Below are positions 1-14,643 of a DNA stretch of 64,000 bases, piece after piece. Made by a program: the position numbers and the translations under genes. Origin of the DNA: Patescibacteria group bacterium UBA1388. Lineage in GTDB: Bacteria; Patescibacteriota; Microgenomatia; UBA1400; PJMF01. Numbering within the stretch: position 1 is the first letter of the stretch; each line of letters begins with the position of its first letter. The stretch lies in contig DBQS01000016.1 in the NCBI GenBank assembly GCA_002305355.1, positions 36,279-100,278 of the forward strand. Direction: 5' to 3'. The notes below the pieces were generated by a model. That model worked only from the letters and a program-made list of their open reading frames with translations. It was not told where the DNA came from and searched no databases.

Positions 1-58
1 CGATCAGTATGCTCCCTTTTTGTTCATCAAATGTGGTTTTTTTACCAATTTTTTTCAT
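1..58 (-). CDS. Partial CDS (N-terminus only; the gene continues beyond the window start). Possible additional pseudopilin.
   Basis: ATG at 58-56 on the minus strand reads MKKIGKKTTFDEQKGSILI..., lying 3 nt downstream of the stop of the upstream pilin-like gene. Context suggests another prepilin-type protein, but the motif is incomplete. Confidence 0.3.
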   Translation of the reverse strand, partial: MKKIGKKTTFDEQKGSILI

Positions 59-61
59 TAT

Positions 62-571
62 TTATCTCATGCCGATTGTAGTTTGGAACTCTCTACTTTC
101 AAAACCTGTATTTTGGACAATCGGACTCGTGACGGTGTACGAAATTTTCAATGCATGTTTACCGCCAGGATTTCCGAGTCTTTGAATTGAAAAATTGCTA
201 ATTTGGGTATCGAAATTTAATGGCTGATGTTGATCCTCAACAATCAACACTAACTGGCCATCATCAACTACATAAGTATAATTAACGCCCTCAATGATTA
301 ACTTTGCGGTAGGGGAATTCTCTCCCAATAATAATGGCTGTACGATATTTGCAGATCTTTTGATGTCATAGGCTAAACGAGCAAGTATAAACTGACCGTC
401 ACGTTCAACTGCTGATAAAGCTTGACTTTGGCTTTTCGCTTCCAAGATTGATAGGAAAAGGGAGCTGAGTTGCACGAACATCAGTGACACCAACGCAAAA
501 TATAGCAAGAGCTCGATTAATGTATAACCTTGATTGAATCTCTTAATGATCTTTTGATTTGTTTTTATCAT
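62..571 (-). CDS. Type IV pilin-like / pseudopilin with a prepilin-type N-terminal cleavage-methylation domain.
   Basis: N-terminus ...RFNQG|YTLIELLLYFALVSLMF has Gly followed by (F/Y)TLIE and a hydrophobic helix, the class III signal. Confidence 0.7.
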   Translation of the reverse strand: MIKTNQKIIKRFNQGYTLIELLLYFALVSLMFVQLSSLFLSILEAKSQSQALSAVERDGQFILARLAYDIKRSANIVQPLLLGENSPTAKLIIEGVNYTYVVDDGQLVLIVEDQHQPLNFDTQISNFSIQRLGNPGGKHALKISYTVTSPIVQNTGFESREFQTTIGMR

Positions 572-624
572 GACTTAGCTGCTTACTATTCATTTTTTGT
601 TCATTCTCATTATCCGCTCAATTG

Positions 625-2607
625 CTATGGAGAGTAATTGACAGTGACTGAATCAATCACTGGGGTACTGGAGCTATCCGCCGTTTCTAAAAAAACTTTA
701 TACTTAAAACATCTGCCAGGGTTTTCATAACCAGAATCATCATCATTGATAGGAATTGGCCCTTCATCTGTAAAAAATGTGGAGCTGGTTCCATCGGGAC
801 CAACAAAGATATATGATGGCTCAACGCAATTTCCGTTGACCGCATCTGCTACGGCCACTTGAAATTTTGCGCTGGTTTGATTGGGTACCATCTTATTCAT
901 CATCACATAATTAAAGGCGGTGGCATAACCAGCATCAAGATATTGAGATTCATAAGTGCCGGTAGTTGCAAATGAATCTCCGGCCCCACCTTCAATAATC
1001 TTGAACTCTGAAGTACTATCTTTGCTAACAATGTAAGAGTATGCTTCGCCATCTTGCTCTAACACACCATCAACCCCATAAACACCGGTATCTAAGTTGA
1101 GGCTGCCACACATTGTTGGATGTGATTCGTCAGTGATATCTACCACTTGATACTCTTCACCTCCAGTGCCAACAATAATTAGTTTGTTCTCGGTCACGAG
1201 TGCCAAGTCCCTGGGATTCATACCATGAGTGTCATATGTCCCAATGAGCGGAAGTGATCCGGATTTGCTAGTGGTGTCAATGATAAATAATTCCCTCATA
1301 TCCCCTGCCTCATCAGTGATGAGATATGCTCTGGTGCCAGTTTCATTTACTTCCACATCCTTACCACGTCTACTATTGACATTTGCGTATCCAACTCTTG
1401 ACAAACTTCTCGGATTAGAAACATCAATTATTTGCATTTCCCTCAAGCCAAAATCAAGCGCCACATAAGCATAATTTCCCTTCACATCAATTCTATAACC
1501 AGTTGCTGGCCACAACAAATAAGGACTCAAGTTGATTGAGTCAAGTTCGGGCAAATTGCCAGACTTATTAGTCAAGTCTACAGTGTGCAACTTGGGACCA
1601 ATCACCATATATGCCACGTTCCCAGACACATGCACTCCTTGCGCAGATCCCCACCAGTAAGTGTCATTAAAAACTGCTACCTCTTGCCCTGTTTCAAGAT
1701 CAACAACCAATAAATCTTTCGAAACGTCACCAGTCGCAATGTAAGCATAATTTTCATCAATGAAAATGTCATTGGTGTCATATCCTGCGATTTGATTGGC
1801 AATACTCACGCCAGGAGGATCATTTTGATCAATATCCATTTCTACAAATACTCCACCAGTACCATCGGTACCGCTAAAAGCCTTACCCTCAATCGCCCTC
1901 ACCACTTTAGCACGCCCTGTGCCAGGTAGGTCTAACTCGGTTCTAATGTAGTCGCTTGGTTTACACCAATTCCCTTTTCCACCAGAACCCAAAATGATTT
2001 CTCCGCCTTGATTATTTACCACCGCTGTGCCACTAGTGAATCCCTCTAAAAAATCTGCTTCACTCGTTTCGATTAAAGACAGATTGTCCAAATATCTAGT
2101 CATATAAATTACAGATGAGATCTGTGATGAGCTGGGTTGTTCCCAACTAATTTGAATGTCAATTTTTTTGATAGATGGATCAATAGTCCCACCTTCAGCA
2201 ATAATGTTTTCTGTTTCATCACGCATCACATCTGAAATAGTAAGTGCTCTTGTGAAGAGACCAGTTGTTTCTTCACCAGCCATAAGCGTCCAAGTCGATT
2301 CAGTCACTACCGGATGATAAACACCATTCGTGGCAATTGACTCCCAACTAGATTCTCTAATCACACGTAAAGCCTCCACGGTTTCAATGAGCAAACCATG
2401 CGCCTGAATTCTGTTCTGTCTTTGAGCGGAGCCTTGTTGAGAAGTAATAATTGCTCCAATTAAAGCAGGCGTAATAATTGCCATCAGGGCCATCACAACC
2501 AAAATTTCAATCAACAGTTGTCCCGAACTAGCGTTCCAGCTCTTCACAAATATTTGCCTCTGACCAGATAATTTTTGCAGAAACTTTAGATTAATTTTTT
2601 TGCGCAT
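625..2607 (-). CDS. Large (660 aa) prepilin-type protein fused to an LVIVD-repeat beta-propeller. Putative minor pilin or tip adhesin.
   Basis: N-terminus SSG|QLLIEILVVMALMAII is a prepilin motif. The body carries repeated blocks such as GNYAYVALDFGLREMQIIDVSNPRSLSRVGY, NKLIIVGTGGEEYQVVDITDESHP and LLVVDLETGQE, typical of LVIVD repeats. Confidence 0.7.
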   Translation of the reverse strand: MRKKINLKFLQKLSGQRQIFVKSWNASSGQLLIEILVVMALMAIITPALIGAIITSQQGSAQRQNRIQAHGLLIETVEALRVIRESSWESIATNGVYHPVVTESTWTLMAGEETTGLFTRALTISDVMRDETENIIAEGGTIDPSIKKIDIQISWEQPSSSQISSVIYMTRYLDNLSLIETSEADFLEGFTSGTAVVNNQGGEIILGSGGKGNWCKPSDYIRTELDLPGTGRAKVVRAIEGKAFSGTDGTGGVFVEMDIDQNDPPGVSIANQIAGYDTNDIFIDENYAYIATGDVSKDLLVVDLETGQEVAVFNDTYWWGSAQGVHVSGNVAYMVIGPKLHTVDLTNKSGNLPELDSINLSPYLLWPATGYRIDVKGNYAYVALDFGLREMQIIDVSNPRSLSRVGYANVNSRRGKDVEVNETGTRAYLITDEAGDMRELFIIDTTSKSGSLPLIGTYDTHGMNPRDLALVTENKLIIVGTGGEEYQVVDITDESHPTMCGSLNLDTGVYGVDGVLEQDGEAYSYIVSKDSTSEFKIIEGGAGDSFATTGTYESQYLDAGYATAFNYVMMNKMVPNQTSAKFQVAVADAVNGNCVEPSYIFVGPDGTSSTFFTDEGPIPINDDDSGYENPGRCFKYKVFLETADSSSTPVIDSVTVNYSP

Positions 2608-3118
2608 GCATCGCTCCTAATTGGTTAATTTCGAAATCAACTCGATCCCCAGTTGTTGAATTTTCCAAACTAAATGTATCTAAATCAGATTGATAGTTCA
2701 TGACTTCACCGCTTAACGGTAAAAATATAATTTGTCTATCAGGTATCGTCACTTCCCTAAATCTGACATCCTGAGGCAATGTCGCCACCACATTGGCGGA
2801 GTCGCTAGCTTGGAAAGTATCACCTTGAAACAAAACATATTGATCATCTCCTAAATAAACACCCTGAGGTAGTGCCTCATCGAGATTTGAATAATTGCCT
2901 TGCATGGCCTGCATTTGTTGTCTTTTCAAGTCGGAAACAAACATTTGTTGATACTCGCTGAGATTTGTTTTCGGGATTAATCCTGACAAAGAAATGCTAG
3001 AAATTGCAAACACTACTGTAAATAAGGCAAGCACAACTAATATTTCAACGAGCGTCATGCCTTTATCTTCATAAAGAATCGATCTGTGCAACCAATCCTT
3101 ACTTTTCCTGTTCATCAT
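2591..3118 (-). CDS. Type IV pilin-like protein (prepilin-type N-terminus).
   Basis: DKG|MTLVEILVVLALFTVVFAI motif. The ATGATG start at 3118/3115 gives MMNRKSKDW...; the longer ORF-track start at 3268 overlaps the kinase gene and is unlikely. Confidence 0.65.
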   Translation of the reverse strand: MMNRKSKDWLHRSILYEDKGMTLVEILVVLALFTVVFAISSISLSGLIPKTNLSEYQQMFVSDLKRQQMQAMQGNYSNLDEALPQGVYLGDDQYVLFQGDTFQASDSANVVATLPQDVRFREVTIPDRQIIFLPLSGEVMNYQSDLDTFSLENSTTGDRVDFEINQLGAMHAQKN

Positions 3119-5339
3119 TTGGGTCTTTCTTAACACTTTTTTCTTCGTGACGTTTGCGTAATTTTTTGAGTCCTTCCTCAGAATACACCGGCACTGTAAA
3201 ACTGAAAGTGGAACCTTTGCCATGACCGTCCGATTCAACCCAAATTTTCCCTCCGTGCAACTCAACAATTGATTTGCTGATGTACAAACCTAATCCAGTG
3301 CCTTGAGCTGAATCTTTGTTCGAAATGTAAGATTCTTTGAGCATACCAAATTTTTTAAACAACTTTGAAATTTGATCCCTCGCCAAACCTACTCCGGTAT
3401 CAATGACGCTGATCGTCACAAATTGTTTGGAAGCAGTTAGACATACTCTGACCTTACCTTGAGGGGGTGTGAATTTGAGTGCATTACCTATTAAATTAGT
3501 CAATACTTCAGCAATTTTATCTCGGTCTGCCATCACATCTGGTAAATCAGACATTTTCTGATGTTTAGCGGTCGGACACTCAATAGTGACCTGCACGTGA
3601 TGCGCTTCAGATCGAGGTTGAAATTCACCGACAATTTGTGACACTAATTCACCAATTTTTAGTTGGGTAATATTCAAAATAATTCTTCCTGATTCAATTC
3701 GCGAAATGTTCAACAAATCATTGATCAATTGTGACATTCTGTTGGCAGAGGCATATGCCCTATCTAAATAAAACTTTTGCTTGCGTTGCAACCTACCACC
3801 CTTGCCCGCCAAAGTCATCCAAATATAATTTTTGATTGAAACCATGGGAGTCCGCAACTCGTGAGAAGCAATTGATACAAATTCATCTTTAAGCTTGTCT
3901 AACTCCTGCAATTTTTTATTGGCAGCCAGTAATTGACTAGTAGCTCGTTCAATTTCATCCTCAAGTGTTATATTGAACCTGCGAATTTCTTCATAAGCTT
4001 TAGCATTTTCAATAGCAACTGCTGCTTGAGAGGCAATGATGTTAACTAACTTGGAGTCTCGGCTTGAAAAAGGATCGCCAGACAATTTCCCTCCCAAAGT
4101 AATTAGGCCTATTGTTTGACCCTCCTTAATCATCTCGATCACTAATTCAAACTCATATTTTTTAAAAATGTTCTGTAATTTGTTGTTGCTCAATGATTCG
4201 TAAATCATTAATTCATTGGGATGTAAAAGTTCTCCAATCTCTTTTTCATCAAGAACAGGTGTTTCGTCATACCCTTCACTAACAACCTGATATATCCCAT
4301 TTTCTTCAATTAAAATAATCATCCCTCTGTGAATTTTCATATTTTGTAACATACGTTGCAACAACTTCCGACATAAATCTTCCAGCAAGAGAGTGGATGC
4401 CATAATTAAAGTTAACTGGTGAAGCAATTCTTCGAAATCATAATAATCCTGATAAAAAATTTGATCCGTTGTTTTCGTAAGGAATTTTTTGAGTGGTTGC
4501 AGCGTAAATCCCACAGCAATAGACAAAAACACGAATATACTTGCTAAACGCAAATCTAACAAACTACCGAAAATCAAATTTGAAAACAAAAATAGAAAAA
4601 TACTTTGGAAAGTTGCAAAAATAATCAAGACTAAAAAATAGGAGACAGTTCTCGCTAGGACTGGCCTGATGTCTAAAAGTTGGTAACGACCAATGGCTGC
4701 GGCAACGGCCCCTCCTCCCAACAATAAAAATAATGGTGACCAATCAACAAACCAGGTAATATGAAAAATGAGCGGCAAAATTACCGTTGATACCAGCATT
4801 AAAATAAAGCTAATTGAAATACCGACTGCAATTAATTGCAGTTGTTGTCGCAAATAACCTTTGCTTAAACGGTATTTCCTGAACAGACTTGCTACTCCTC
4901 CCAAGATTGCACCTATCTGCAGCATCATAAATGACAACACTGCGGAACCAGCTTCGATTTGTAAAGTACCTGCTTCAATCGTAACTCTAGAAAAAATTAA
5001 TCCCGAATAAGCAAGAACAAAATTGAGCAAAACCCACAAAAAAAGAACGATTTGGATTTTCAAATTAAAAAATATTTTTTGTGTGGGAAATACTTTCACA
5101 AAACAAAAAAAGAAGGGACCAGCTGGAATGGCTGAAAATAGTATCATTTTAGAAAAGAAATCAAGGCCCATTTGAGAATTGGTATGTAAAGCTAAATAAT
5201 TAAAAATTGGGTAAAGACTAATGCAAAATAAAAGAAAAGCAAAATAGATATGAGTACCACTTTTCCTATTTTTGAGAATAATAAACAAGCCCAGTACAAA
5301 ACTGATTAAAGCAGTCAAGATGGCGATAAATAATTCCAT
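3099..5339 (-). CDS. Sensor histidine kinase: polytopic N-terminal membrane domain, GAF-like domain, HisKA, HATPase_c.
   Basis: At least 8 predicted TM helices at the N-terminus. H-box FVSIASHELRTPMVSIKNY. G-boxes GTGLGLYISKSIVELHGGKIWVESDGHGKGSTFSF. Confidence 0.8.
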   Translation of the reverse strand: MELFIAILTALISFVLGLFIILKNRKSGTHIYFAFLLFCISLYPIFNYLALHTNSQMGLDFFSKMILFSAIPAGPFFFCFVKVFPTQKIFFNLKIQIVLFLWVLLNFVLAYSGLIFSRVTIEAGTLQIEAGSAVLSFMMLQIGAILGGVASLFRKYRLSKGYLRQQLQLIAVGISISFILMLVSTVILPLIFHITWFVDWSPLFLLLGGGAVAAAIGRYQLLDIRPVLARTVSYFLVLIIFATFQSIFLFLFSNLIFGSLLDLRLASIFVFLSIAVGFTLQPLKKFLTKTTDQIFYQDYYDFEELLHQLTLIMASTLLLEDLCRKLLQRMLQNMKIHRGMIILIEENGIYQVVSEGYDETPVLDEKEIGELLHPNELMIYESLSNNKLQNIFKKYEFELVIEMIKEGQTIGLITLGGKLSGDPFSSRDSKLVNIIASQAAVAIENAKAYEEIRRFNITLEDEIERATSQLLAANKKLQELDKLKDEFVSIASHELRTPMVSIKNYIWMTLAGKGGRLQRKQKFYLDRAYASANRMSQLINDLLNISRIESGRIILNITQLKIGELVSQIVGEFQPRSEAHHVQVTIECPTAKHQKMSDLPDVMADRDKIAEVLTNLIGNALKFTPPQGKVRVCLTASKQFVTISVIDTGVGLARDQISKLFKKFGMLKESYISNKDSAQGTGLGLYISKSIVELHGGKIWVESDGHGKGSTFSFTVPVYSEEGLKKLRKRHEEKSVKKDPNDEQEK

Positions 5340-5345
5340 GCAGTG

Positions 5346-6482
5346 CTAGGGCAAATTAATCGCCTCCAAAACACTTCTGCGTGGCGTGTGAATTTCCCTA
5401 TTTACACTATACCCTAATCGAAAAAACATGTGAGGAGTAAGTTTGGGAATCCTGAAAAACGATTGCAAAAACGCTGGGTAGTTTTTGTTTTCAACCAAAG
5501 CTGCCATCGGCGTAGTGCTGATTCCAAAGTTTCGACAAACCAAAGCAACTAATTGATAAGCAATACCAGCTTGAATCCATGCCAAAATATTATTCTCAGA
5601 GCTAGCTATTAATCCTAACGCTGGTGCTGACTGTAAATTTTTAGCATCTTTGATCGACTGTATTTTCAATGGAAAAGCAAAAAACCTAATCACTATTGGT
5701 CCTAACCAAGACATCAAAAGTGGTAAACCTGAAACAAAACCGGGCATACCATCCGCTTGCTGAGTGTTGTTCGCTCGCAACCACTGGCTTAATTCTCTTC
5801 TGAAATTCTGATTCGCAGACATTTCATATGCTGCCTTCTTGTAAAGCTGAGCCAGTGTTTTAATTGTATCCCCATTTGATATAATTTTTAACTGAGATTT
5901 CGTAAATAATCTTACATAGTTGTTGATTAAATTTACAACTTGATTGGGAACAGTTTGAGAAAGATATTTCCCCTTATCTGAAAAACGTTTATCAATATTC
6001 TCAAACAGCCTACCGAGTATCATTAGTTTGGATATTTGATGATCATCTGTTGGTTTTTGAAATGAAACTTGAATTAATAATTCAAATCTTTTAACCCATA
6101 GGTCATTAACATTTGAAAAACAATTTTTAGTCTTAGTGATTCCTTGAAAATAGTTATCTTGATTAATATTTGATCTTTTCCGGTGAATTTCATAGTCAAT
6201 TTGATAACCATATGCTGCAGCAGCAACTTGTAAGTTTGTGATCATACAGCCGAGACTTATAAAAACACCCCTGTCAATGGGATCCGCGGCTGGCAGACGC
6301 AACTGATAATTTGGAGAAATTGTTAACCCGCCATCATTGACCTTTAACTTCCAAGGCTGCGTATTATGAGTTGATGGGGCAAGGATGCCCGCTTTCAAAC
6401 TTTCAGACACTACAACTGCTAATGATTTGTTGGATTGCGGTTGACGTAAATGATGCCAAGCTGCGTAATTGTGCTTATGCAT
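5346..6482 (-). CDS. Nitroreductase-superfamily (FMN oxidoreductase fold) protein with a long internal insertion.
   Basis: N-terminal ...AGILAPSTHNTQPWKLKV matches the nitroreductase APSxxNxQPW motif. C-terminal ...FFRLGYSVNREIHTPRRS matches the RLGY...PRR end of the fold. About 180 aa of non-canonical sequence lie between them. Confidence 0.6.
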   Translation of the reverse strand: MHKHNYAAWHHLRQPQSNKSLAVVVSESLKAGILAPSTHNTQPWKLKVNDGGLTISPNYQLRLPAADPIDRGVFISLGCMITNLQVAAAAYGYQIDYEIHRKRSNINQDNYFQGITKTKNCFSNVNDLWVKRFELLIQVSFQKPTDDHQISKLMILGRLFENIDKRFSDKGKYLSQTVPNQVVNLINNYVRLFTKSQLKIISNGDTIKTLAQLYKKAAYEMSANQNFRRELSQWLRANNTQQADGMPGFVSGLPLLMSWLGPIVIRFFAFPLKIQSIKDAKNLQSAPALGLIASSENNILAWIQAGIAYQLVALVCRNFGISTTPMAALVENKNYPAFLQSFFRIPKLTPHMFFRLGYSVNREIHTPRRSVLEAINLP

Positions 6483-7586
6483 TTAATTTACCTCCATCAT
6501 ATCTTCAAGATCAAATATACTTGGAAAATGAATTTTCGTTTGCTGACTAACAACCTTTTTGCGCAGGGCAATTTGTCTAACTAAAAAGGCAGTGATACCT
6601 GCGCCAACTGTCACCGAACTATACAGTTGTGGTCTACCAACCAAAGTTATTCCCAACTGGGTAACTGAGCGCTTTGCTCTAAGCGGCACATTATTTTTAC
6701 CAACTAAAGTTACCGCCAACATTTTCCGTTCATCATCGCTTAATTTTTGATTGACTATTTTATTTAATAAGGCTGCTTTCACCCTGCCATGAAAAGGTTG
6801 CAAACTTTCTAAGTCGTAACGTTCAACATCGAACAATACCGAATCACCCAAATTAGTGCACATCAAGAGAGGCAAACGGTACTTTTTCGCCATTTGTCTT
6901 AACAGGACTTTCATCGGAAAGTCATCTATTGCATCAATAAGCAATTGCGGCCGATTCTTTTCCCTCATTAATTTTTCTATTAATGTTTGAGTGGCTCTTT
7001 TCCGAATCACATTTAACTTTAAAAAAGGATCAAGCTGATATAAATCTTGAGCAACCCGCTCTGCTTTTGACTGACCAATAGCAAAGATATCGACCGGTAC
7101 ACGATTTAAATTTGATATCGAAAAATAATCATCATCACAAATTGTCATCCTCTGTGAAAAACCGCACTGGATGATAGTTTTCGCAATCACCCCGCCAATA
7201 GACATCCCAAAAATTGCAATCGGAAAGTCACGGAGTTGCAGCTGTTCTTTTGCTGAAATGAGTTTTTGATTACGGTTGGTGCGCAAAGCAAAAAAATTAT
7301 GCTCTGTAAGTAAGTGTACGATGGCATTTCTCCATGGATAATAGACCCACACGCCAATAATTTGATCTTGTTCTTTATTATCAGCTAAAAATTCTTGCAA
7401 CTTGGCTTGATTGCTTGCCACAGATGGATTAGTTATTTCAAATAATTCCCGTAGTTGGTCTTGGTAGTGATCAATTTTATTAACTTGAGGATGATGAGCT
7501 AACCATCTTGATAAGTCTTTAGGAGAGTGCGAATCAGCAGAAATTATGAAAGGTGAATATTCTGACTTCATTTGCTCATTCATCAA
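6483..7586 (-). CDS. ThiF/MoeB/E1-like adenylyltransferase-family protein with an N-terminal extension.
   Basis: IAIFGMSIGGVIAKTIIQCGF (GxGxxG Rossmann loop) followed by ICDDDYFSISNLNRV (D.D.V..SNLNRQ-type motif). There is zero-nt spacing to the downstream gene. Confidence 0.65.
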   Translation of the reverse strand: MMNEQMKSEYSPFIISADSHSPKDLSRWLAHHPQVNKIDHYQDQLRELFEITNPSVASNQAKLQEFLADNKEQDQIIGVWVYYPWRNAIVHLLTEHNFFALRTNRNQKLISAKEQLQLRDFPIAIFGMSIGGVIAKTIIQCGFSQRMTICDDDYFSISNLNRVPVDIFAIGQSKAERVAQDLYQLDPFLKLNVIRKRATQTLIEKLMREKNRPQLLIDAIDDFPMKVLLRQMAKKYRLPLLMCTNLGDSVLFDVERYDLESLQPFHGRVKAALLNKIVNQKLSDDERKMLAVTLVGKNNVPLRAKRSVTQLGITLVGRPQLYSSVTVGAGITAFLVRQIALRKKVVSQQTKIHFPSIFDLEDMMEVN

Positions 7587-7589
7587 ACC

Positions 7590-9116
7590 TTACTTCTTAA
7601 TCCATCGTTGCTTAATAATGGGGTTAAAATATTTGGGATGATGGTGTTCCCAAAAAATCACATTTGGTTCGGCCCTGCCATTAATAGTTTCATAGGTTTT
7701 TCTGTATGGTGAATTTTCAACTTTTAAAATCTCAACCAGTGTTTTCGTTACAGATTTTTTCAGTGATTTTGAACTTTTAATACCACTCTTTAACTCGACG
7801 TTAATATCTAATCTTTGATTCTGATCCCGATCATATCTGACTTCCATAGTAAATCTGCCAGTAACTGCTACCTCTAATTCGGAACGAAGTAATGCCCTTC
7901 TAATTGTTTCCGGATAAATCGTGAAACCATAAAAACTAACCGAAAAATCTCGCCTTTCGTAAACATAAACAAATGGTAGCTGCCAAACGGTATGATCTAT
8001 TTTTTCTTGTTTCGCAAGCTTCAGCAAATCTGTGCCATGTTCTTCAAAATTTTTAATCATCCTTTCAAAGGAAATTACTCTACCCCTATCTTTCAAATCA
8101 TAGCGTGCAAGTGGCAAACCACTATAGGCAGAACAAATTAAATCACCATCATCATCTTCAAAATAAAACATGTCTGGGAAAAATTGGGTTAAGGTAGGAA
8201 CACGATAGATTTTGTTAAAAACTTGATCAAAAATTACTTTGTTCAGATAAGCCTTTCTTCTTGCCAAAATTGAAAGTGGTGTTTCATAAGACATCGTACC
8301 CATATCCACCGTACCATATTGATTTAAAGTGTGCGTGAAAATATTTTCTAAGCCAGTTGCTTTCGCCACATAATCTCGAAAAGACTCACTAAATACTTCC
8401 GCCGCAAAAATAAAACCAAGGTCATATTGTTTCCACTTCAAACCCTCTCGTTTTGCTTCATCTAAAGTATCTTTGAGAAATGGTCCATAACTCCCAATAA
8501 TGATTTGATCAAAATATGGACCCAAGCGTTTGACAGCCTTAATGATTTCTGTCGCACTCACACCGGGTGTAATCACACTTAATGGATACTGTCTACTATC
8601 AGCAATGTATTTAATGGCTTGATAAGTAAACAAGCCTCCAATCCACTGCCCCATCGGAAAACCAACGATGTAGAGCGTAGTTTTCTGATCAATTTGAAAG
8701 TTTGTGAGCAAATATAATTCTGCCATTGCTGCATACTGCCAATCTTGATCCCTTTCCCTCGGAAAATAAAACGGTTCACCAGTTGATCCAGTAGTTGATG
8801 CAATTACAACTGGCTTTGAAGATAACTTACCATCCCACGATAAGGCATCAAGAGGATATTGTCTTAAATATGAGTTCTTACTAACTGGGGGTACCTTTTT
8901 AAAATCGGCAATTGTATTAATTGTGTGCGGCCTAATCTTGTGTTTACGTAAAAAATCTCGATAAGCAGGCACACGTAATGCCATCTGCTGAAATAATTGT
9001 AAAACGCGTTTGTCGCCTCTTTTTTGCCAATAATATTCTGGATTGTGTTGTAATTTGTAAAGTAATTTATTTGGTTGTAAATAGCCAGACGCTATTAATG
9101 TCCTGTTATTCTTCAT
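7590..9116 (-). CDS. PaaK-like (phenylacetate-CoA ligase / F390-synthetase family) adenylate-forming enzyme.
   Basis: ADFKKVPPVSKNSYLRQYP...VIASTTGSTGEPFYFPRERDQD aligns with PaaK DLRKFPCTTKQDLRDNYP...IHASSGTTGKPTVVGYTQNDID. The P-loop reads TTGSTGEP, with Glu where PaaK has Lys. The ATG at 9116 overlaps the upstream stop by 11 nt. Confidence 0.65.
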   Translation of the reverse strand: MKNNRTLIASGYLQPNKLLYKLQHNPEYYWQKRGDKRVLQLFQQMALRVPAYRDFLRKHKIRPHTINTIADFKKVPPVSKNSYLRQYPLDALSWDGKLSSKPVVIASTTGSTGEPFYFPRERDQDWQYAAMAELYLLTNFQIDQKTTLYIVGFPMGQWIGGLFTYQAIKYIADSRQYPLSVITPGVSATEIIKAVKRLGPYFDQIIIGSYGPFLKDTLDEAKREGLKWKQYDLGFIFAAEVFSESFRDYVAKATGLENIFTHTLNQYGTVDMGTMSYETPLSILARRKAYLNKVIFDQVFNKIYRVPTLTQFFPDMFYFEDDDGDLICSAYSGLPLARYDLKDRGRVISFERMIKNFEEHGTDLLKLAKQEKIDHTVWQLPFVYVYERRDFSVSFYGFTIYPETIRRALLRSELEVAVTGRFTMEVRYDRDQNQRLDINVELKSGIKSSKSLKKSVTKTLVEILKVENSPYRKTYETINGRAEPNVIFWEHHHPKYFNPIIKQRWIKK

Positions 9117-10161
9117 AAGATTCAATCTTTTGCAGATTAATTTCATCGGCAATAATGTGTGGCGAGCGCCTGGTTTTGGCACTAAGCTTAAAAATCTGGT
9201 CAAGCTCAGTGGCAATTGCATCCAGCTTTTTCATCATTCTGCGATGACTACGACGTGGGAACTCATACTCATCAACAACACTCATTAAACCACCGGCATT
9301 GATAATGTAGTCTGGGGTATAAAGAATATGACGCTCAAAAAGTAGATCTCCCATTTCTGAGGATGACAACTGATTGTTGGCGCCACCCGCTACTAATTGA
9401 CACTGCAGTTGCTTAACTGTTTTTTGATTAATACTACCGTACATAGCACATGGCACAAATACATCTACTGGCAAAGTAGCAATCGCTTCAGGTTTTACCA
9501 ATTCCACACGAGGATAAATTTTTTTAATGTTGGAAGTCACACTTTCTAAAACATCAGTCGCATAAATTTTTTCTGCCTCTGAGTAAAGTTGGCTGAGAAC
9601 TCCTGATCCAATTTTTCCCAAACCCTGAATGGCAAAACTCCTCTGATGCATTTCGTCATCACCAAAAACATGTTTCAAGCCCACTTTTAAGCCTTTAATA
9701 ATACCTGCCACAGTGTACTTCACAGGGTCAATTTCTCCGCCCACAACGTGTGAACTCAATTTCTTCAATTGCCGTACTTGCTGCCGACTCATGCCAATAT
9801 CTGCCCCGGTAATGAACATCCCAGCCAATAAATTAATCTGCTCCGCGTATGCTGCGGCCATGCGTGCTGTAAATTCTTCTGGGTGAGCAATAATCACAGC
9901 TTTTGCGCCACCATAAGATAAATTTCCAGCAGCTGATTTAAAAGACATTGTTTTCGATAAACGTAATACATCCCTCAGGGCTTCGACACGACTTGCATAG
10001 GGATAAATTCTAGTTGCCCCAAAAGACTTAAGTTTTTTTGAGCCACGATGAATGGCAATAAATCCTTCTAATTGTTGAGACGGTTGATTAAAGTAATGCA
10101 CGACTCGGTGTTGGTCATATTCCTCAAGATCGAGATTTGCTGTCAAACTGTTTTTTTTCAT
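9106..10161 (-). CDS. Glu/Leu/Phe/Val dehydrogenase family (leucine/phenylalanine dehydrogenase-like, NAD-dependent).
   Basis: IAIHRGS...GATRIYPYASRVEALRDVLRLSKTMSFKSAAGNLSYGGAKAVII, IQGLGKIG, DVFVPCAMYG, LVAGGANNQL and YTPDYIINAGG align motif-for-motif with Bacillus LeuDH. Both catalytic Lys positions are present. Confidence 0.85.
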   Translation of the reverse strand: MKKNSLTANLDLEEYDQHRVVHYFNQPSQQLEGFIAIHRGSKKLKSFGATRIYPYASRVEALRDVLRLSKTMSFKSAAGNLSYGGAKAVIIAHPEEFTARMAAAYAEQINLLAGMFITGADIGMSRQQVRQLKKLSSHVVGGEIDPVKYTVAGIIKGLKVGLKHVFGDDEMHQRSFAIQGLGKIGSGVLSQLYSEAEKIYATDVLESVTSNIKKIYPRVELVKPEAIATLPVDVFVPCAMYGSINQKTVKQLQCQLVAGGANNQLSSSEMGDLLFERHILYTPDYIINAGGLMSVVDEYEFPRRSHRRMMKKLDAIATELDQIFKLSAKTRRSPHIIADEINLQKIESYEE

Positions 10162-10229
10162 AGGTATTGTTAAAAAGTTTGCGACAACGTTTACTTGCTT
10201 TTTCTACCCCTAATCAGTATGCTTGGCTC

Positions 10230-10691
10230 ATGAACACATCTATTGCAACTTCAAACCCAATCGATTCGCCTCAATCTGCCAATAACAGTTATCCTACTAC
10301 AAAAAATGCAAATAGCAAAAATGGGAAGAAAATTTTGATAGCAGATGACGAACAATATATTCGGGAACTTTATGAAGAAGTATTAAGCAGTGAAGGATAC
10401 TCTGTTGAGGGAGTTTCCGATGGTAAAACAGCTCTGGAAAAAATTTCAGAGGGAGGGTGGGATCTAATTACTCTTGATGTAATTATGCCCAAGCTCGATG
10501 GCTTGGGAATCCTTACAAAACTTGAGGAAACTCCACCAAAAAAGAAAAATGGACCAATCATTTTGCTTACTAGTCTTGCCAATGACCCCGCCGTTCTAGA
10601 AGCTCAAAAAAAAGGTGCCACTCAAGTCATCATCAAAACTGATATTACTCCTAAGCAGTTGGTGGATCTGGTTAAAAAACAGATTGGTTAA
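10230..10691 (+). CDS. Single-domain response regulator (CheY-like receiver).
   Basis: KKILIADDEQYIRELYEEVL...LITLDVIMPKLDG...KKGATQVIIK. The ORF track starts at TTG 10167; ATG 10230 is the more likely start. Confidence 0.7.
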   Translation: MNTSIATSNPIDSPQSANNSYPTTKNANSKNGKKILIADDEQYIRELYEEVLSSEGYSVEGVSDGKTALEKISEGGWDLITLDVIMPKLDGLGILTKLEETPPKKKNGPIILLTSLANDPAVLEAQKKGATQVIIKTDITPKQLVDLVKKQIG

Positions 10692-10771
10692 GTAACACTG
10701 ATTATTTTAAAAATTTTTGCTGGAAATTTGGTACACTCGCTAGCTTGCTATAAATCAAAGACAAACAAATC

Positions 10772-11827
10772 TTATCTCGCGCCTACTGAGCCAATCAAAC
10801 CATAAATTGGAGCGATGATCGCCATCATCATCCCTCCCACCGCCAGTCCCACAAAAACAAGCAAGAGCGGTTCTAGCATAGCTGTCATTTTCTTTACAGA
10901 CTTACTCACCTTATAATCCATATTCTCAGATACATTTTGCATTGCTTCCTCAAGCGTGCCACTCTTCTCACCAACTTCCATTAACTTAATCATAATGCCA
11001 GGAATAATGTTCTGCTTGCTTTGTAAACCATGAGAAAAAGGATGACCAGCAACAGCTTGCTCTCGAGCTTGATCCACCAAATCTCTGACTTCTTTTTTTA
11101 AAATTACCTCCTGAGCAAGTTCTAATGAGGTGGTGATAGGGATACCAGAAGAAAGAAGTAAATGTAAACTCCGACTAAATCTGGTGATATCGATTTCACG
11201 AATTAGCTTAGAAACTCCAGGAAATGAAAATGCTATTTGTAAGATAAACTCACGTTTGGTTTGATACAAAACAAAAATAATCATCACTAACAACGCTACA
11301 ATTCCGAGTACAATTTGCCAATTGCCAGTCAAAGCGTTGGAAGTAAAGATTAATGCTTTCGTCGCCATTGGAAGAGTGACATTCAACCTTGTAAATACAG
11401 TTGAAATACGAGGAATAACAAACAATAACATACCCAACAACACGCCAATAAAAACAATCATCACGACAATCGGATAAAACATGGCTGACTTCACACCGTC
11501 AATGAATTCCATTTCTTTTTTAATATTCCCCTGCAAATCGTACAATGTTTCTTCAAGTGTACCTGCTTCTTCAGCGGCTTTAATCAAACTCACTGTGACT
11601 TTGTCGAAAGTATAAGGATATCTAGAAAAAGAGTCGGAAATTTGTTTGCCTGCAGAAATATCTTCACGCAAGGACAGTAAAATCTTTCTTTGGTTTCCTT
11701 TTGCTTCTGCGAGCAACGAGTCGACTGTTTCTGAAATAGGGATACCAGCCGACAACATCGTTTTTAAATTAGCGATTAAGCTAATTTTTTCCTCTTGCGC
11801 TAATCTAACTCTGCCGAATCCAAACAT
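10772..11827 (-). CDS. pilC: Type IV pilus assembly platform protein PilC / GspF family.
   Basis: Polytopic protein with two GspF-type repeats (GTLEETLYDLQ ... MFYPIVVMIVFIGVLLGMLLFVIPR). Lies 3 nt downstream of pilB. Confidence 0.85.
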   Translation of the reverse strand: MFGFGRVRLAQEEKISLIANLKTMLSAGIPISETVDSLLAEAKGNQRKILLSLREDISAGKQISDSFSRYPYTFDKVTVSLIKAAEEAGTLEETLYDLQGNIKKEMEFIDGVKSAMFYPIVVMIVFIGVLLGMLLFVIPRISTVFTRLNVTLPMATKALIFTSNALTGNWQIVLGIVALLVMIIFVLYQTKREFILQIAFSFPGVSKLIREIDITRFSRSLHLLLSSGIPITTSLELAQEVILKKEVRDLVDQAREQAVAGHPFSHGLQSKQNIIPGIMIKLMEVGEKSGTLEEAMQNVSENMDYKVSKSVKKMTAMLEPLLLVFVGLAVGGMMMAIIAPIYGLIGSVGAR

Positions 11828-11830
11828 GCC

Positions 11831-13525
11831 CTACTCCATTTCAGTCTTGGTCACTCTTAATACTTCTTCAATCGTGGTCATGCCCTTAGTAATTTTTTCA
11901 ATTCCATCATCAAACATGCTAGTTAATCCCTCTTTGAGGGCTTGTTCACTTATCGCATCTGCATCTGCTTTTTTGGCAATTAATTCTCGCAAATCCTTGG
12001 AAACTTCCAGAACTTCATAAATTCCAATTCTGCCCTTATAACCAGTGTTATGACACACTCGGCACCCTTGACCTCGATAAACTCTAACTTCTTTTTTATC
12101 ACCTACGGGAATGTAGTGTTTATTAATCGTTTCGAGAGAAAGATATTTTTGCAACTCTGTCACTGGTATTGTTTCTGAAACTCGACAATGTGGGCAGATC
12201 CTTCTCACCAGTCTTTGAGCTACAATCACATGCACCGTACCAGCTACTAAAAATGGCTCAACCTTCATATCAAATAACCGAGGCAACGAGGAAACTGCAT
12301 TGTTCGTGTGCAAGGTTGAGAAAACAAGATGTCCAGTCAAAGCCGCATTGATCGCAATGGCAGCGGTCTCATTGTCCCTAATTTCTCCCACAAATATGTA
12401 ATCAGGATCCTGTCTTAATAGGGACCTCAGACCATTGGCAAAAGTTAAATTTGTTTTTTCATTGACTTGCACCTGATTAGCACCTTTAATCCTATACTCA
12501 ACTGGATCTTCAATACTGGTGAGATTAGTTTCCCGCGTGTTGATCGTTTTTAGAATTGAGTAAATAGTAGTCGTTTTTCCAGATCCAGTTGGGCCGGTCA
12601 CCAAAATCATGCCGTCAGTTCTGGCAGCTGCCTTTTTAATTTTTACCAAATCTGTTTCATTAATACCTAGCTCTTCCAAAGAATAAGACCTAGCTTGAGA
12701 TGTCAACAGTCTCATCACAACTTTTTCGCCTTCTGCAATGGGAATTATTGAAACACGCAAGTCCAGTCGCTCTCCGTTAATATCCATTTTAATTTTACCG
12801 TCTTGTGCCGCTAAGTGCTGATCAGTTCTTAAGCTTGATAAAACTTTAATTCTAGTCACAATTCTACCGAGCAAGTCTTTAGGCAGACTGGCAATGTCAT
12901 GTAAAATCCCGTCAATCCTAAATCTGACCAACACCTCATCTTCATTGGGTTCAATATGAATATCTGATGCATGCTCTAAATAAGCAGCTTTAATCACTTC
13001 ATCGACCAATTTTTTAACGGGTGGATCGTGAGCAACTGTGCGCATCACTCTTCCATCTGCTTCATTCAGTAACTTACTAAATATTTCCTGAAAATCGGTG
13101 TGATAATTTAATAAGGTTTGATTTAAATCTTGTTCAGTAGCAAAAAAGATTTTGACTTGTTTGCCTGTTTTTTGGGCTACTAGTTTGGGTAAAATTTGAT
13201 TCTTAAAATCGGCTGTGGCAATACTGACATACTTTTCATCTTCTGCAAAAGTCACCATTTTATGACGTTTTGCTACCTCCTCAGGCATAATGTTCATCGT
13301 TTCATCAGAAATATTTTGTTTACTCAATTCAACAAATGGCACTTTAATTACTTCGGCAACTAACTTTCCCATAGCCTGATCGGTGGTATATCCTTTTTCA
13401 ACCAAACCATCCCAAAGACTCACATCTGTCTCTTCTGCAAATTTAGCGATTTTTTTGAGATCTGTGCGGCTGATAATTTTTTTAGCCAACAACAAATTGC
13501 TGAGTTGGGCATCAGTGAGTTGCAT
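11831..13525 (-). CDS. pilB: Type IV pilus assembly ATPase PilB / GspE family.
   Basis: GspE N-terminal domain, Walker A GMILVTGPTGSGKTTT, Walker B/Asp box and the C-terminal CxxC...CxxC zinc tetrad (CPHCR...CRVCHNTG). Confidence 0.9.
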   Translation of the reverse strand: MQLTDAQLSNLLLAKKIISRTDLKKIAKFAEETDVSLWDGLVEKGYTTDQAMGKLVAEVIKVPFVELSKQNISDETMNIMPEEVAKRHKMVTFAEDEKYVSIATADFKNQILPKLVAQKTGKQVKIFFATEQDLNQTLLNYHTDFQEIFSKLLNEADGRVMRTVAHDPPVKKLVDEVIKAAYLEHASDIHIEPNEDEVLVRFRIDGILHDIASLPKDLLGRIVTRIKVLSSLRTDQHLAAQDGKIKMDINGERLDLRVSIIPIAEGEKVVMRLLTSQARSYSLEELGINETDLVKIKKAAARTDGMILVTGPTGSGKTTTIYSILKTINTRETNLTSIEDPVEYRIKGANQVQVNEKTNLTFANGLRSLLRQDPDYIFVGEIRDNETAAIAINAALTGHLVFSTLHTNNAVSSLPRLFDMKVEPFLVAGTVHVIVAQRLVRRICPHCRVSETIPVTELQKYLSLETINKHYIPVGDKKEVRVYRGQGCRVCHNTGYKGRIGIYEVLEVSKDLRELIAKKADADAISEQALKEGLTSMFDDGIEKITKGMTTIEEVLRVTKTEME

Positions 13526-13566
13526 ACTTTTATCATATACTAAAAATTAACTAAAATGAAACTTTT

Positions 13567-14643
13567 GTTAGTCGCACATACTTTTCGGAAAATTGGTTGT
13601 AATAAATTGCACTGGTGATTGATAATTTAGTGCCATATGTGGTCGCTTGGTGTTGTACCAAGCTAAGTACTTAGTTAGTTTAACTTGGAAAGTGTTTAAG
13701 TCATAGTAGATCTCATCATTTCTGTTAATAAACTCTTCTTGGATGGTTCTGTTAAATCTTTCAACAACACCATTAATTTTGGGTGATCTAGGATAAATAA
13801 ATTGATGTTTAATTTTTTGCTTCTCCAGATACTGGTGAAATGTTTTAAAAAATTCTGACCCGTTGTCTGTTTGGACTGTATAAACTTGATGAGGCAAAAT
13901 ATTTTGGAATTCCTGAAAAGTAATTTTAGCTTGCAAGCTAGAGAGAGTGCTAACTTTCCTGACATGAGCTAGCTTTGTAAAGATATCGATACAACACATG
14001 AAGTTGTGTCGAGTGTTGTCGATATACACCACCACAGAGTCCATTTCGATATATCCTGGTTTAGTAACCTTAGGAGATCTTCTTGATCTATCTTTAGATA
14101 ATTTATTCTTTCTCTTAACTCTTCTTGGTGGATCAAAGAATAAGTTTCTTCTCCTAATCACTTTAGAAATAGTTCGACTGCTAATTGAGGGTATATTAAG
14201 CTCACCAGCATATTCATCTAAAAAGATCTTGAGTTTTCTTTCTCCAATGTTGCCATGCTGCTCTCTAAACTCACGAATAAACTGAACTAATCTCCAATCA
14301 GTCGTCATCTGTCTAACTCTCTTGGGACGAGTCTTCTTAGGTACCAGTGATAACAGAGCTTTTCCAGATTCTTCATACTTTCTTTTCCAGTCATACAAGG
14401 TAGATTTGCCAATCTTGAATGCTTGAATAGCTGATTTGTAGCCATATTTGTAGTAGTGATCTAGCACGTGGAGTCTAAACTTGGCAGGATCTGATTTATC
14501 AAAGTTAAGTGAGTTTTCAAGTGTCTTCATCAACCAATCATACTGATTGTTATATGAAAACAACTCAATATTTCGTCTAATCCCAACTCCTTGTTTAACT
14601 TTCACGACTATCTTTCCATTCCGGAAAGTATCGTGCGACATTC
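13567..14643 (-). mobile_element. IS481-family-like insertion sequence (1077 bp) with imperfect terminal inverted repeats and a 7-bp target-site duplication, AACTTTT.
   Basis: IRL is GTTAGTCGCACATACTTTTCGGAA (13567-). IRR, as the reverse complement of 14620-14643, is GAATGTCGCACGATACTTTCCGGAA. AACTTTT occurs at 13560-13566 and again at 14644-14650. A single transposase ORF fills the element. Confidence 0.75.
13568..14641 (-). CDS. DDE transposase (rve integrase core) with an N-terminal HTH, IS481-like.
   Basis: YIEMDSVVVYID...VQTDNGSEFF...INGVVERFNRT forms the D, D, E triad of the rve domain. The start codon lies inside the IR. Confidence 0.85.
   Translation of the reverse strand: MSHDTFRNGKIVVKVKQGVGIRRNIELFSYNNQYDWLMKTLENSLNFDKSDPAKFRLHVLDHYYKYGYKSAIQAFKIGKSTLYDWKRKYEESGKALLSLVPKKTRPKRVRQMTTDWRLVQFIREFREQHGNIGERKLKIFLDEYAGELNIPSISSRTISKVIRRRNLFFDPPRRVKRKNKLSKDRSRRSPKVTKPGYIEMDSVVVYIDNTRHNFMCCIDIFTKLAHVRKVSTLSSLQAKITFQEFQNILPHQVYTVQTDNGSEFFKTFHQYLEKQKIKHQFIYPRSPKINGVVERFNRTIQEEFINRNDEIYYDLNTFQVKLTKYLAWYNTKRPHMALNYQSPVQFITTNFPKSMCD

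Follow-up and report, generated by a model that had tools for sequence, protein, structure and literature searches.

An enzyme and histidine kinase module of Patescibacteria inserted in a type IV pilus operon

Why does a histidine kinase gene lie between a set of enzyme genes and a set of pilin genes? The question is raised by a gene array at one end of a 64,000-nucleotide stretch from Patescibacteria group bacterium UBA1388 (assembly GCA_002305355.1, contig DBQS01000016.1, positions 36,279 to 100,278 of the forward strand), the whole of which we call the window. A preliminary description, made from the letters alone, saw ten co-directional genes running from 10161 down to 58 and offered two readings: kinase-sensed control of a specialised pilus, or enzymatic modification of the pilins. 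We find that the array is made of two parts. The upstream part, module A, is a conserved Patescibacteria unit of a dehydrogenase or aminotransferase, a PaaK-fold enzyme, a ThiF-like protein, an Acg-type flavin oxidase (with or without a hydrolase), a histidine kinase (HK) and a response regulator (RR). The downstream part, module B, is the section of a type IV pilus operon that encodes the minor pilins. This composite architecture can be read directly from the genomes. The explanation that we favour, and hold to be reasonably probable, is that a conserved metabolite-synthesis-plus-sensor module of Patescibacteria was inserted in the pilus operon, where it probably captured transcription of the minor pilins.

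The array and its enzymes and kinase

Nine genes, all on the minus strand, make up the array from 10161 to the left edge of the window, both in the open reading frame (ORF) listing and in independent gene calls on the identical public Logan contig. Nine is also the number of genes that the preliminary description lists under its heading of ten, and the coordinate 58 that it gave as the array end is the start of a truncated gene. Its account of the packing was borne out: the junctions down the array are -11, +6, 0, +6, -17, -17, +53 and +3 nt (negative values being overlaps), so that, with the exception of the single 53-nt gap, neighbouring genes overlap or lie at most 6 nt apart. All of its family labels were recovered with Pfam and NCBIfam and, for the PaaK-like protein, with a structure model. 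In reading order, the first five genes encode a dehydrogenase (9106–10161; Pfam ELFV_dehydrog and ELFV_dehydrog_N), a PaaK-like protein of 508 amino acids (aa) (7590–9116; PaaK fold by AlphaFold and Foldseek), a ThiF-like enzyme (6483–7583; Pfam ThiF, E = 4e-20), a nitroreductase-like Acg-type flavin oxidase (5346–6482; Pfam Nitroreductase/TM1586_NiRdase) and a 7TM-GAF HK (3099–5339; Pfam HisKA_7TM, GAF, HisKA and HATPase_c). The remaining four are of the pilin type. The upstream limit of the array is a divergent plus-strand gene for a receiver-only (CheY-like) RR (Pfam Response_reg, E = 2.5e-23), whose ORF spans 10167–10691, opening with TTG at 10167 and with a likely ATG start at 10230.

We assessed the distribution of module A in a census of 80 species-level genome loci (L005–L084) around PaaK-like homologues, annotated with per-family hidden Markov models. 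The 53 loci that include at least 3 kb upstream and at least 6 kb downstream were considered informative, and the census counts refer to these. All 53 contain both the PaaK-like gene and ThiF. In 50 loci an HK gene lies downstream of the cassette, always co-directional with it. A dehydrogenase (31 loci) or a class I/II aminotransferase (17 loci) neighbours the PaaK-like gene in 48 loci, and the two are never found together. The nitroreductase-type oxidase is present in 41 loci, a receiver-only regulator in 32, and an alpha/beta hydrolase (HsaD/BphD/enol-lactonase-like) in 12. Because the same HK stands beside PaaK-like and ThiF genes in 50 of 53 genomes, the link between enzymes and kinase that had been proposed from the window is real and extends far beyond it. 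The mutual exclusion of dehydrogenase and aminotransferase indicates that a step between an amino acid and a 2-oxo acid is part of the pathway. Most loci with the aminotransferase gene are of the Saccharibacteria type, and the gene is as a rule divergent.

Gene order is permuted in some loci while the set is kept together, and several of the enzymes are fused in single ORFs. For instance, ThiF is fused to the nitroreductase-type oxidase in 8 cases and the oxidase to the alpha/beta hydrolase in 6; a 654-aa protein joins ThiF to the hydrolase (L045, 11512–13476) and an 889-aa protein from Liptonbacteria joins the PaaK-like enzyme to ThiF (L034, 3024–5693). These fusions and permuted orders tie the cassette enzymes together as parts of one pathway.

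More than 1458 homologues of the PaaK-like protein were found, at ~50–60% identity. All of those with informative names are from Patescibacteria (Roizman-, Gottesman-, Doudna-, Magasanik-, Woese- and Saccharibacteria, and others). Many third-party metagenome-assembled genomes whose gene content is clearly of the Patescibacteria type bear titles such as 'uncultured Gammaproteobacteria', 'Pseudomonadales' or 'Polyangiaceae' (L006, L007, L010, L012, L036, L067 and others), and a 3.8-kb contig with a 57%-identical PaaK-like gene is labelled as a Jordarchaeaceae archaeon (P0014). These titles are probably labelling or binning errors. In one complete Saccharibacteria chromosome (CP064992.1, ~8700–15800 of locus L065) the module genes for aminotransferase, ThiF and kinase look broken up into several ORFs, reflecting either pseudogenisation of the module or assembly indel errors. 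We found no description of the module in the searchable literature, and papers on Saccharibacteria genetics are silent on it in their main text. Given its high conservation in such tiny genomes, the module is probably important for the Patescibacteria lifestyle.

The kinase has the HisKA H-box (SHELRTP) and the HATPase_c domain, and its partner RR has a receiver domain. The eight membrane passes ascribed to it in the preliminary description correspond to eight clear peaks in a hydropathy scan, to which a weaker ninth has to be added. Kinases of the family fall into a long class (~690–775 aa) and a short class (~530–610 aa). Full-length homologues at 35–45% identity are paired with other enzymes in relatives of the window. 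For instance, the kinase partners are a pyruvoyl-type histidine-decarboxylase-like protein and a 224-aa protein of no assigned family in L092 (5457–7029), a divergent 489-aa ThiF and a 373-aa protein of no assigned family in L091 (2034–4639), a methyltransferase-like protein in L163 (1296–2279), and an oxidase::ThiF fusion, with the domain order reversed, in L143 (941–4200). The enzyme partner of the kinase thus appears to be exchangeable.

The pilus operon and its junction with the module

Four genes of the prepilin type follow the kinase. Minor pilin 1 (2591–3115; GspH/ComGD-like) has an N_methyl/TIGR02532 match with the motif KG/MTLVEIL, where the slash marks the predicted cleavage site. 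It is followed by a modular minor pilin that carries a beta-propeller (625–2607; LVIVD, E = 6e-18) behind a ComGE-like N-terminus with the motif SG/QLLIEIL, and which we call the LVIVD pilin. Minor pilin 3 (62–571; ComGF/ComGD-like; N_methyl motif QG/YTLIELL) lies after the 53-nt gap and 3 nt before a fourth pilin-like gene, which begins at 58 and is truncated where the window ends (1–58). The visible part of this last gene reads MKKIGKKTTFDEQKGSILI, and it matches the N-termini encoded by genes of 133 aa and 138 aa at the same position in two relatives, L002 and L087. The class III signal (G/xxxxE plus a hydrophobic helix) is present in the three complete genes. The LVIVD pilin has glutamine at +1 after the predicted cleavage glycine, a position usually taken by phenylalanine or methionine, and L002 and L087 also have the glutamine. 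Glu5 is missing from the fourth pilin-like protein. We infer from its make-up that the LVIVD pilin is a probable pilus-tip adhesin.

The reverse test started from the pilins: we collected 80 metagenome loci with LVIVD-pilin homologues at 35–62% identity, of which 49 were informative. The homologues lie in pilus operons in all 80 loci. The usual layout is an RR (where present), PilB, PilC, a pilin, the LVIVD pilin, a further pilin, a protein of ~130 aa, one of ~350–400 aa, and the major pilin. PilC is followed directly by the pilins, with the homologue of minor pilin 1 first, in 40 of the 49 informative loci, and minor pilin 3 is conserved behind the LVIVD pilin in related loci. Module B is the minor-pilin part of such an operon. 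In the window the upstream half of the split operon lies beyond the divergent RR gene (10772–13525): minus-strand genes encode a PilC-type platform protein (10772–11827; Pfam T2SSF, E = 5e-45) and a PilB-type assembly ATPase (11831–13525; T2SSE), and in L002 and L087 both T2SSF and T2SSE are annotated at this position. The genes downstream of the window edge were read from these two relatives, in which the last complete pilin gene is succeeded by three more: the fourth pilin-like gene, a gene for a ~300–400-aa protein and one for a major-type pilin. The 53-nt gap shrinks to 14 nt or to an overlap in relatives.

Pilus operons of this type commonly contain orphan receiver-only RRs, usually without a kinase. 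In several related operons (L095, L112, L118, L131, L169 and others) there are two more conserved receiver-only RRs, of paralogue classes distinct from the cassette RR. One lies directly before PilB and the other after the major pilin, where it is followed by a ~785-aa DUF87/TrwB-type ATPase (e.g., L169, 1152–1517 and 9185–11960). The RR of the window is up to 88% identical to the class of RRs divergent from the cassette and only ~35% identical to the pre-PilB RRs. We considered whether the pre-PilB RR might be the cassette RR and rejected this: the two are separate paralogue classes, with ~35–39% identity between them versus 74–76% within each.

Only in the window clade does module A occupy the exact place between PilC and the first minor pilin, and the insertion of a block running from the divergent RR to the kinase is seen in only a few of the 49 informative loci with LVIVD pilins. 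Since PilC followed by pilins is the usual arrangement (40 of 49), we read the layout of the window as a derived insertion of the RR, enzymes and kinase. The clade with the insertion comprises the window, L002 (84% identity), L089 (63%), L087 (60%, for the PaaK-like protein), L090, L091, L092 and L098. L087 keeps the same 15-gene layout at identities of 35–47% for dehydrogenase, ThiF, oxidase and HK, 60% for the PaaK-like protein and 28–43% for the pilins. The junction of the kinase and the first pilin is visible in six members (window, L002, L087, L091, L092 and L098), and in each of them the two genes overlap or are at most 13 nt apart. Two of these, L091 and L092, retain the RR, the HK and the pilins, while the intervening enzymes have been replaced. 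Comparison of synteny, which had been suggested as a check, shows that the order of enzymes, kinase and pilins is kept within a divergent clade; in nearly all other genomes the cassette has no pilins nearby. Among the 80 census loci, pilins lie directly behind the HK only in the 84%-identity relative (L002).

Full-length HK homologues at 35–45% identity adjoin the same pilus operon in three layouts. In the first the HK is inserted after PilC, as in the window. In the second the order is cassette, HK, RR, PilB, PilC and pilins (L085 and L143). In the third (L169) the kinase is convergent and downstream, with ThiF, HK and RR reading in that order. L154 and L155 also have HK, RR, PilB and PilC in this order, but their kinase, a short form of 438 aa, is only a candidate member of the same family.

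These recurrences have to be weighed against a simpler history, in which the module landed once in the ancestor of the clade and was inherited, so that the tight kinase-pilin junction is a by-product with no functional tie to the pilus. The module is almost never near pilus genes in the informative census genomes (2–3 of the 53 Patescibacteria loci, about chance level), and 40 of 49 pilus operons of this type are without it. The density of isolated pilins within 10 kb (~11 in 1.3 Mb) does not exceed the expectation for such genomes; those elsewhere in the census are 7–8 kb away, and some lie among glycolysis genes (between them in the one locus examined, L010). Independent events that brought module and pilus together are few, and retention of the layout inside one clade could be simple inheritance. 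An insertion sequence (IS) element beside the locus marks the region as prone to rearrangement. On the other hand, the layout has been kept although all module and pilin proteins except the PaaK-like one have diverged to just 28–47% identity, and the order of divergent RR, kinase and pilins outlasted the exchange of the enzymes in L091 and L092. The same HK family is also found next to this operon in two further, independent layouts, and these operons often have orphan receiver-only RRs that lack a kinase of their own. We regard the neutral history as possible, and lean against it.

The RR gene points the opposite way and separates PilC from the cassette, so the minor pilins of this clade are most likely transcribed from the cassette promoter. 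The presumed promoter region is the 68-nt divergent spacer between the RR and dehydrogenase genes (10162–10229), which measures 65 nt in L002. No consensus promoter stands out in it by scanning, and no stable structure was found by folding against shuffled sequences. Along the array, promoter-like matches (43 versus 47 expected from shuffles) and terminator-like matches (11 versus 11.2 expected) occur at chance level, and the terminator-like sites on the coding strand are all intragenic. The 53-nt gap, the PilC/RR junction and the RR/dehydrogenase region fold no better than shuffled sequence. Internal promoters or terminators, which would have spoken against a single array, were thus matched only at chance level, and such consensus scans and folding are uninformative either way for bacteria of the candidate phyla radiation (CPR).

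Kinase-linked control of minor-pilin expression or of pilus function in the window clade is plausible from the gene arrangement. The earlier proposal of kinase-sensed control fits the recurrent juxtaposition of HK and pilus operon in at least three layouts. In the RR, Pfam and NCBIfam searches found no output domain.

Between PilB and a DinB-like polymerase gene (14595–15923) the window has a minus-strand IS-type transposase gene (13568–14641; rve integrase core and HTH domains). Because L002 and L087 have no gene at the same spot, we take it to be a recent insertion beside the pilus locus. No rRNA or tRNA genes were found in the window by Rfam and tRNA scans.

The cassette enzymes and their likely chemistry

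The dehydrogenase has both ELFV domains. It is nearest to the clade acting on hydrophobic and aromatic amino acids (leucine, tryptophan and phenylalanine), with scores of 188 bits for leucine dehydrogenase and 187 bits for tryptophan dehydrogenase from the PDB versus ~51 bits for glutamate dehydrogenase. Against the NCBIfam equivalog of the tryptophan dehydrogenase ScyB it scores 262 bits, under the cutoff of 600. As judged from these scores, it is an NAD(P)-dependent amino-acid dehydrogenase of the Leu/Trp/Phe clade.

The PaaK-like protein matched no Pfam family, and its scores against PaaK equivalogs of NCBIfam are low (33 bits with a cutoff of 700, and 27.9 bits with a cutoff of 646). Its AlphaFold model (pLDDT 85.8) is best matched by PaaK1 (2y27) in Foldseek, with an E value of 7.6e-21 and a TM score of 0.64 when normalised to the query and 0.76 when normalised to the target. 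Other top matches are BT_0428, a 2-hydroxyisobutyryl-CoA ligase, and ClxA, which was crystallised with an aryl-acid adenylate. A P-loop of the form (T/S)GS(T)GxP and a C-terminal catalytic lysine are functional marks of the ANL enzymes, and the corresponding TGSTGEP and Lys502 of the window protein are invariant or at least 95% conserved in the family. We therefore assign the protein, on the modelled fold, to a distinct family of two-domain PaaK-fold (ANL superfamily) adenylate-forming enzymes without an assigned substrate.

The best NCBIfam model for the ThiF-like protein is the 'Rv1355c family' (240.6 bits over residues 3–358, below the equivalog cutoff of that model), and the runner-up scores 52 bits. 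The motifs DxxD (with D220), NLNR and GxSxG do not vary among 82 family members. Judged by motif and position alone, D220 would be equivalent to the catalytic D217 of TrzS. The oxidase, whose gene abuts that of ThiF (0-nt gap), scores 192 bits against the NCBIfam Acg family, just under the cutoff of 199, and also matches positions 370–456 of the Rv1355c model. In the fused ThiF::oxidase of a CPR relative (L085), the flavin-dependent oxidase (FDO) part, of the nitroreductase superfamily, reaches 217 bits on the Acg model, above that cutoff. The oxidase segment APSTHNTQPW (PSxHNxQPW) aligns with the Acg structure 2YMV.

Rv1355c (TrzS), TyzB/TyzC and OxzB have been shown by experiment to be N-acyl-oxazolone synthases (PMC12856293, PMC10404671, PMC12596934, bioRxiv 10.1101/2020.06.11.147165). 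TrzS converts N-acyl-tryptophan to N-acyl tryptazolone (PMC12856293), and TyzB/TyzC and OxzB carry out the equivalent conversion of tyrosine and phenylalanine derivatives (PMC10404671; bioRxiv 10.1101/2020.06.11.147165). According to a recent review, oxazolone formation is the sole ThiF-like chemistry on a small molecule (PMC12596934). In sequence, the ThiF and oxidase pair of the window resembles OxzB, TyzBC and TrzS (Rv1355c), which act on small molecules and not on proteins.

This resemblance bears on the proposal that the enzymes modify the pilins, in which ThiF and the PaaK-like enzyme would activate pilin C-termini and the oxidase and dehydrogenase would tailor them. The cassette is co-directional and tightly coupled with the four pilin genes, ThiF-family enzymes such as MccB and PaaA modify peptide C-termini (PMC12596934), and ThiF is extended at its N-terminus by ~100 aa ahead of the Pfam match. 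That extension, however, belongs to the Rv1355c-family model, which aligns from residue 3–4, and the nearest characterised relatives act on N-acyl amino acids. With gaps of 6 nt or less, there is no room for a small carrier or precursor gene. A C-terminal motif shared by the pilins had been suggested as a possible substrate tag, but the ends of six products of the pilin operons of the window and L002 (QKN, YSP, GMR, EIE, TSV and ATR) are unrelated. The cassette is also conserved in genomes that have no pilin gene close to it, the pilins of this operon are usually encoded away from such enzymes, and L091 and L092 retain pilins and kinase with other enzymes. Cassette and pilins do not co-occur outside the clade. 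We consider pilin modification very improbable. Of the preliminary interpretation, then, the operon-like array and the kinase link are supported and the modification of pilins is not.

Another metabolic reading does without a signal of the cell's own making: the HK would sense a compound from outside (an amino acid, an aryl acid or a metabolite of the host), the enzymes would catabolise, salvage or detoxify it, and the pilins would be passengers. A dehydrogenase or aminotransferase together with a PaaK-type ligase follows the logic of aryl-acid and amino-acid catabolism. The hydrolase found in the cassettes of relatives resembles enol-lactone and C-C hydrolases of catabolic pathways, and the kinase of L092 is paired with a decarboxylase-like enzyme. 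Pairs of ThiF and FDO, however, are so far known only from oxazolone biosynthesis, no conserved downstream catabolic genes adjoin the module in the census loci, and an RR without DNA-binding output would be unusual for induction of a catabolic operon. We find this reading unlikely.

A possible mechanism and its known counterparts

Under the reading that we favour, a metabolite-making and sensing module joined to the pilus operon, we infer the chemistry and the sensing as follows. The dehydrogenase or aminotransferase would interconvert an amino acid and its 2-oxo acid. The PaaK-like enzyme would activate a carboxylic acid with ATP and yield an N-acyl amino acid, in place of an acyl-CoA N-acyltransferase. 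ThiF would then adenylate and cyclise this product, and the flavin oxidase would desaturate it to an oxazolone-type (or derived) small molecule. The polytopic HK would sense the metabolite or a precursor and phosphorylate the CheY-like RR, which may act through protein-protein contact. In the window clade the minor pilins would be read from the cassette promoter, and production of the pilus tip would thereby be tied to the signalling module.

Several observations weigh against this scheme. The Rv1355c equivalog has a cutoff of 476 bits, whereas the window ThiF scores 240.6, the oxidase 58.6 and the fused ThiF::oxidase of L085 342.3. No N-acyltransferase gene of the OxzA/TyzA/TrzA type was found in the window array or in the conserved neighbourhood of the 80 census loci; the invariant partner, where the known pathways use an acyl-CoA N-acyltransferase, is the PaaK-like enzyme. 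Relatives of PaaK usually form CoA thioesters and not amides. The oxidase is missing in about a quarter of the modules. Transcriptional control by the RR is hard to explain given that it has no DNA-binding domain, and in the one member of the short HK class that was scanned the 7TM match is below the Pfam gathering cutoff and there is no GAF hit. Finally, neither consensus scanning nor folding found a terminator between PilC and the cassette, so that read-through from PilBC is possible.

A more far-reaching version is that Patescibacteria share, throughout the lineage, a signalling system in which an ATP-dependent ligase, a ThiF cyclase and a flavin oxidase make an oxazolone-type signal of their own from amino acids, that the adjacent 7TM(-GAF) HK reads it, and that in the window clade the system gates production of the pilus tip for host contact or DNA uptake. 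We hold this version to be unlikely. If true, it would give bacterial oxazolones a first physiological role, and no circuit dedicated to sensing between cells or of a host would have been described in CPR bacteria before it. The role of bacterial N-acyl oxazolones is an explicit open question of the groups that discovered them (PMC12856293; bioRxiv 10.1101/2020.06.11.147165). A pair of ThiF and flavin oxidase that is nearly always found beside a membrane sensor kinase suggests a concrete signalling hypothesis for them. In cultivated Saccharibacteria, motility and attachment to the host are driven by type IV pili (PMC12206443), and the window clade, with its pilus-tip genes directly behind the kinase, is thus a natural setting for testing whether the module controls host interaction. 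For annotation, the array carries a warning: it should not be read as a pilin-modification system.

The closest comparison for the enzymes is with the N-acyl-oxazolone pathways, i.e., OxzAB of Pseudoalteromonas rubra and TyzACB and TrzAS (Rv1356c/Rv1355c) of Mycobacterium tuberculosis. As in these, ThiF falls to the Rv1355c model and the oxidase to the Acg/FDO family, ThiF::oxidase fusions occur in CPR relatives, and the aromatic or hydrophobic amino-acid-derived substrates of the known pathways would fit the Leu/Trp/Phe-type dehydrogenase of the window. Unlike them, the module has in place of the N-acyltransferase a PaaK-fold enzyme, accompanied by a dehydrogenase or aminotransferase and in some loci by a hydrolase, and the pair is tied to a 7TM histidine kinase and usually also to a receiver-only RR. 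The known loci are from Proteobacteria and Actinomycetota, whereas the window-type pair is from Patescibacteria and has no assigned product.

For the sensor, a parallel exists in the autoinducer synthases paired with polytopic kinases, such as LuxM/LuxN, CqsA/CqsS and LqsA/LqsS/LqsR of Legionella; the Lqs system includes a receiver-type regulator without classical DNA-binding output. There, as here, genes for making a small molecule from amino-acid or acyl precursors adjoin a multi-pass membrane HK (in adjacency only, 50 of 53 loci here). The enzymes of the window are unrelated to those synthases, no sequence kinship was seen beyond the generic kinase core, and signalling by the product would be a functional analogy.

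Known control systems of type IV pili include PilS/PilR and the Chp system with PilG/PilH, in which, as in the window, an HK and single-domain receivers are encoded with pilus genes. The window differs in having no sigma-54 activator of the PilR type and no CheA-type kinase, in that its kinase comes with a biosynthetic cassette, and in that the association of kinase and pilus is restricted to one CPR subclade. With MccB, PaaA, ThiF/ThiS and MoeB/MoaD, the ThiF-like enzyme shares the adenylation domain of the ThiF fold, with its conserved nucleotide-binding motifs and catalytic aspartate. It differs from these systems in having no substrate peptide, beta-grasp carrier or C-terminal tag, and its nearest family acts on small molecules. 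The locus thus joins in a new way a ThiF/FDO pathway of the oxazolone type to a two-component system and a type IV pilus operon, each of a known kind.

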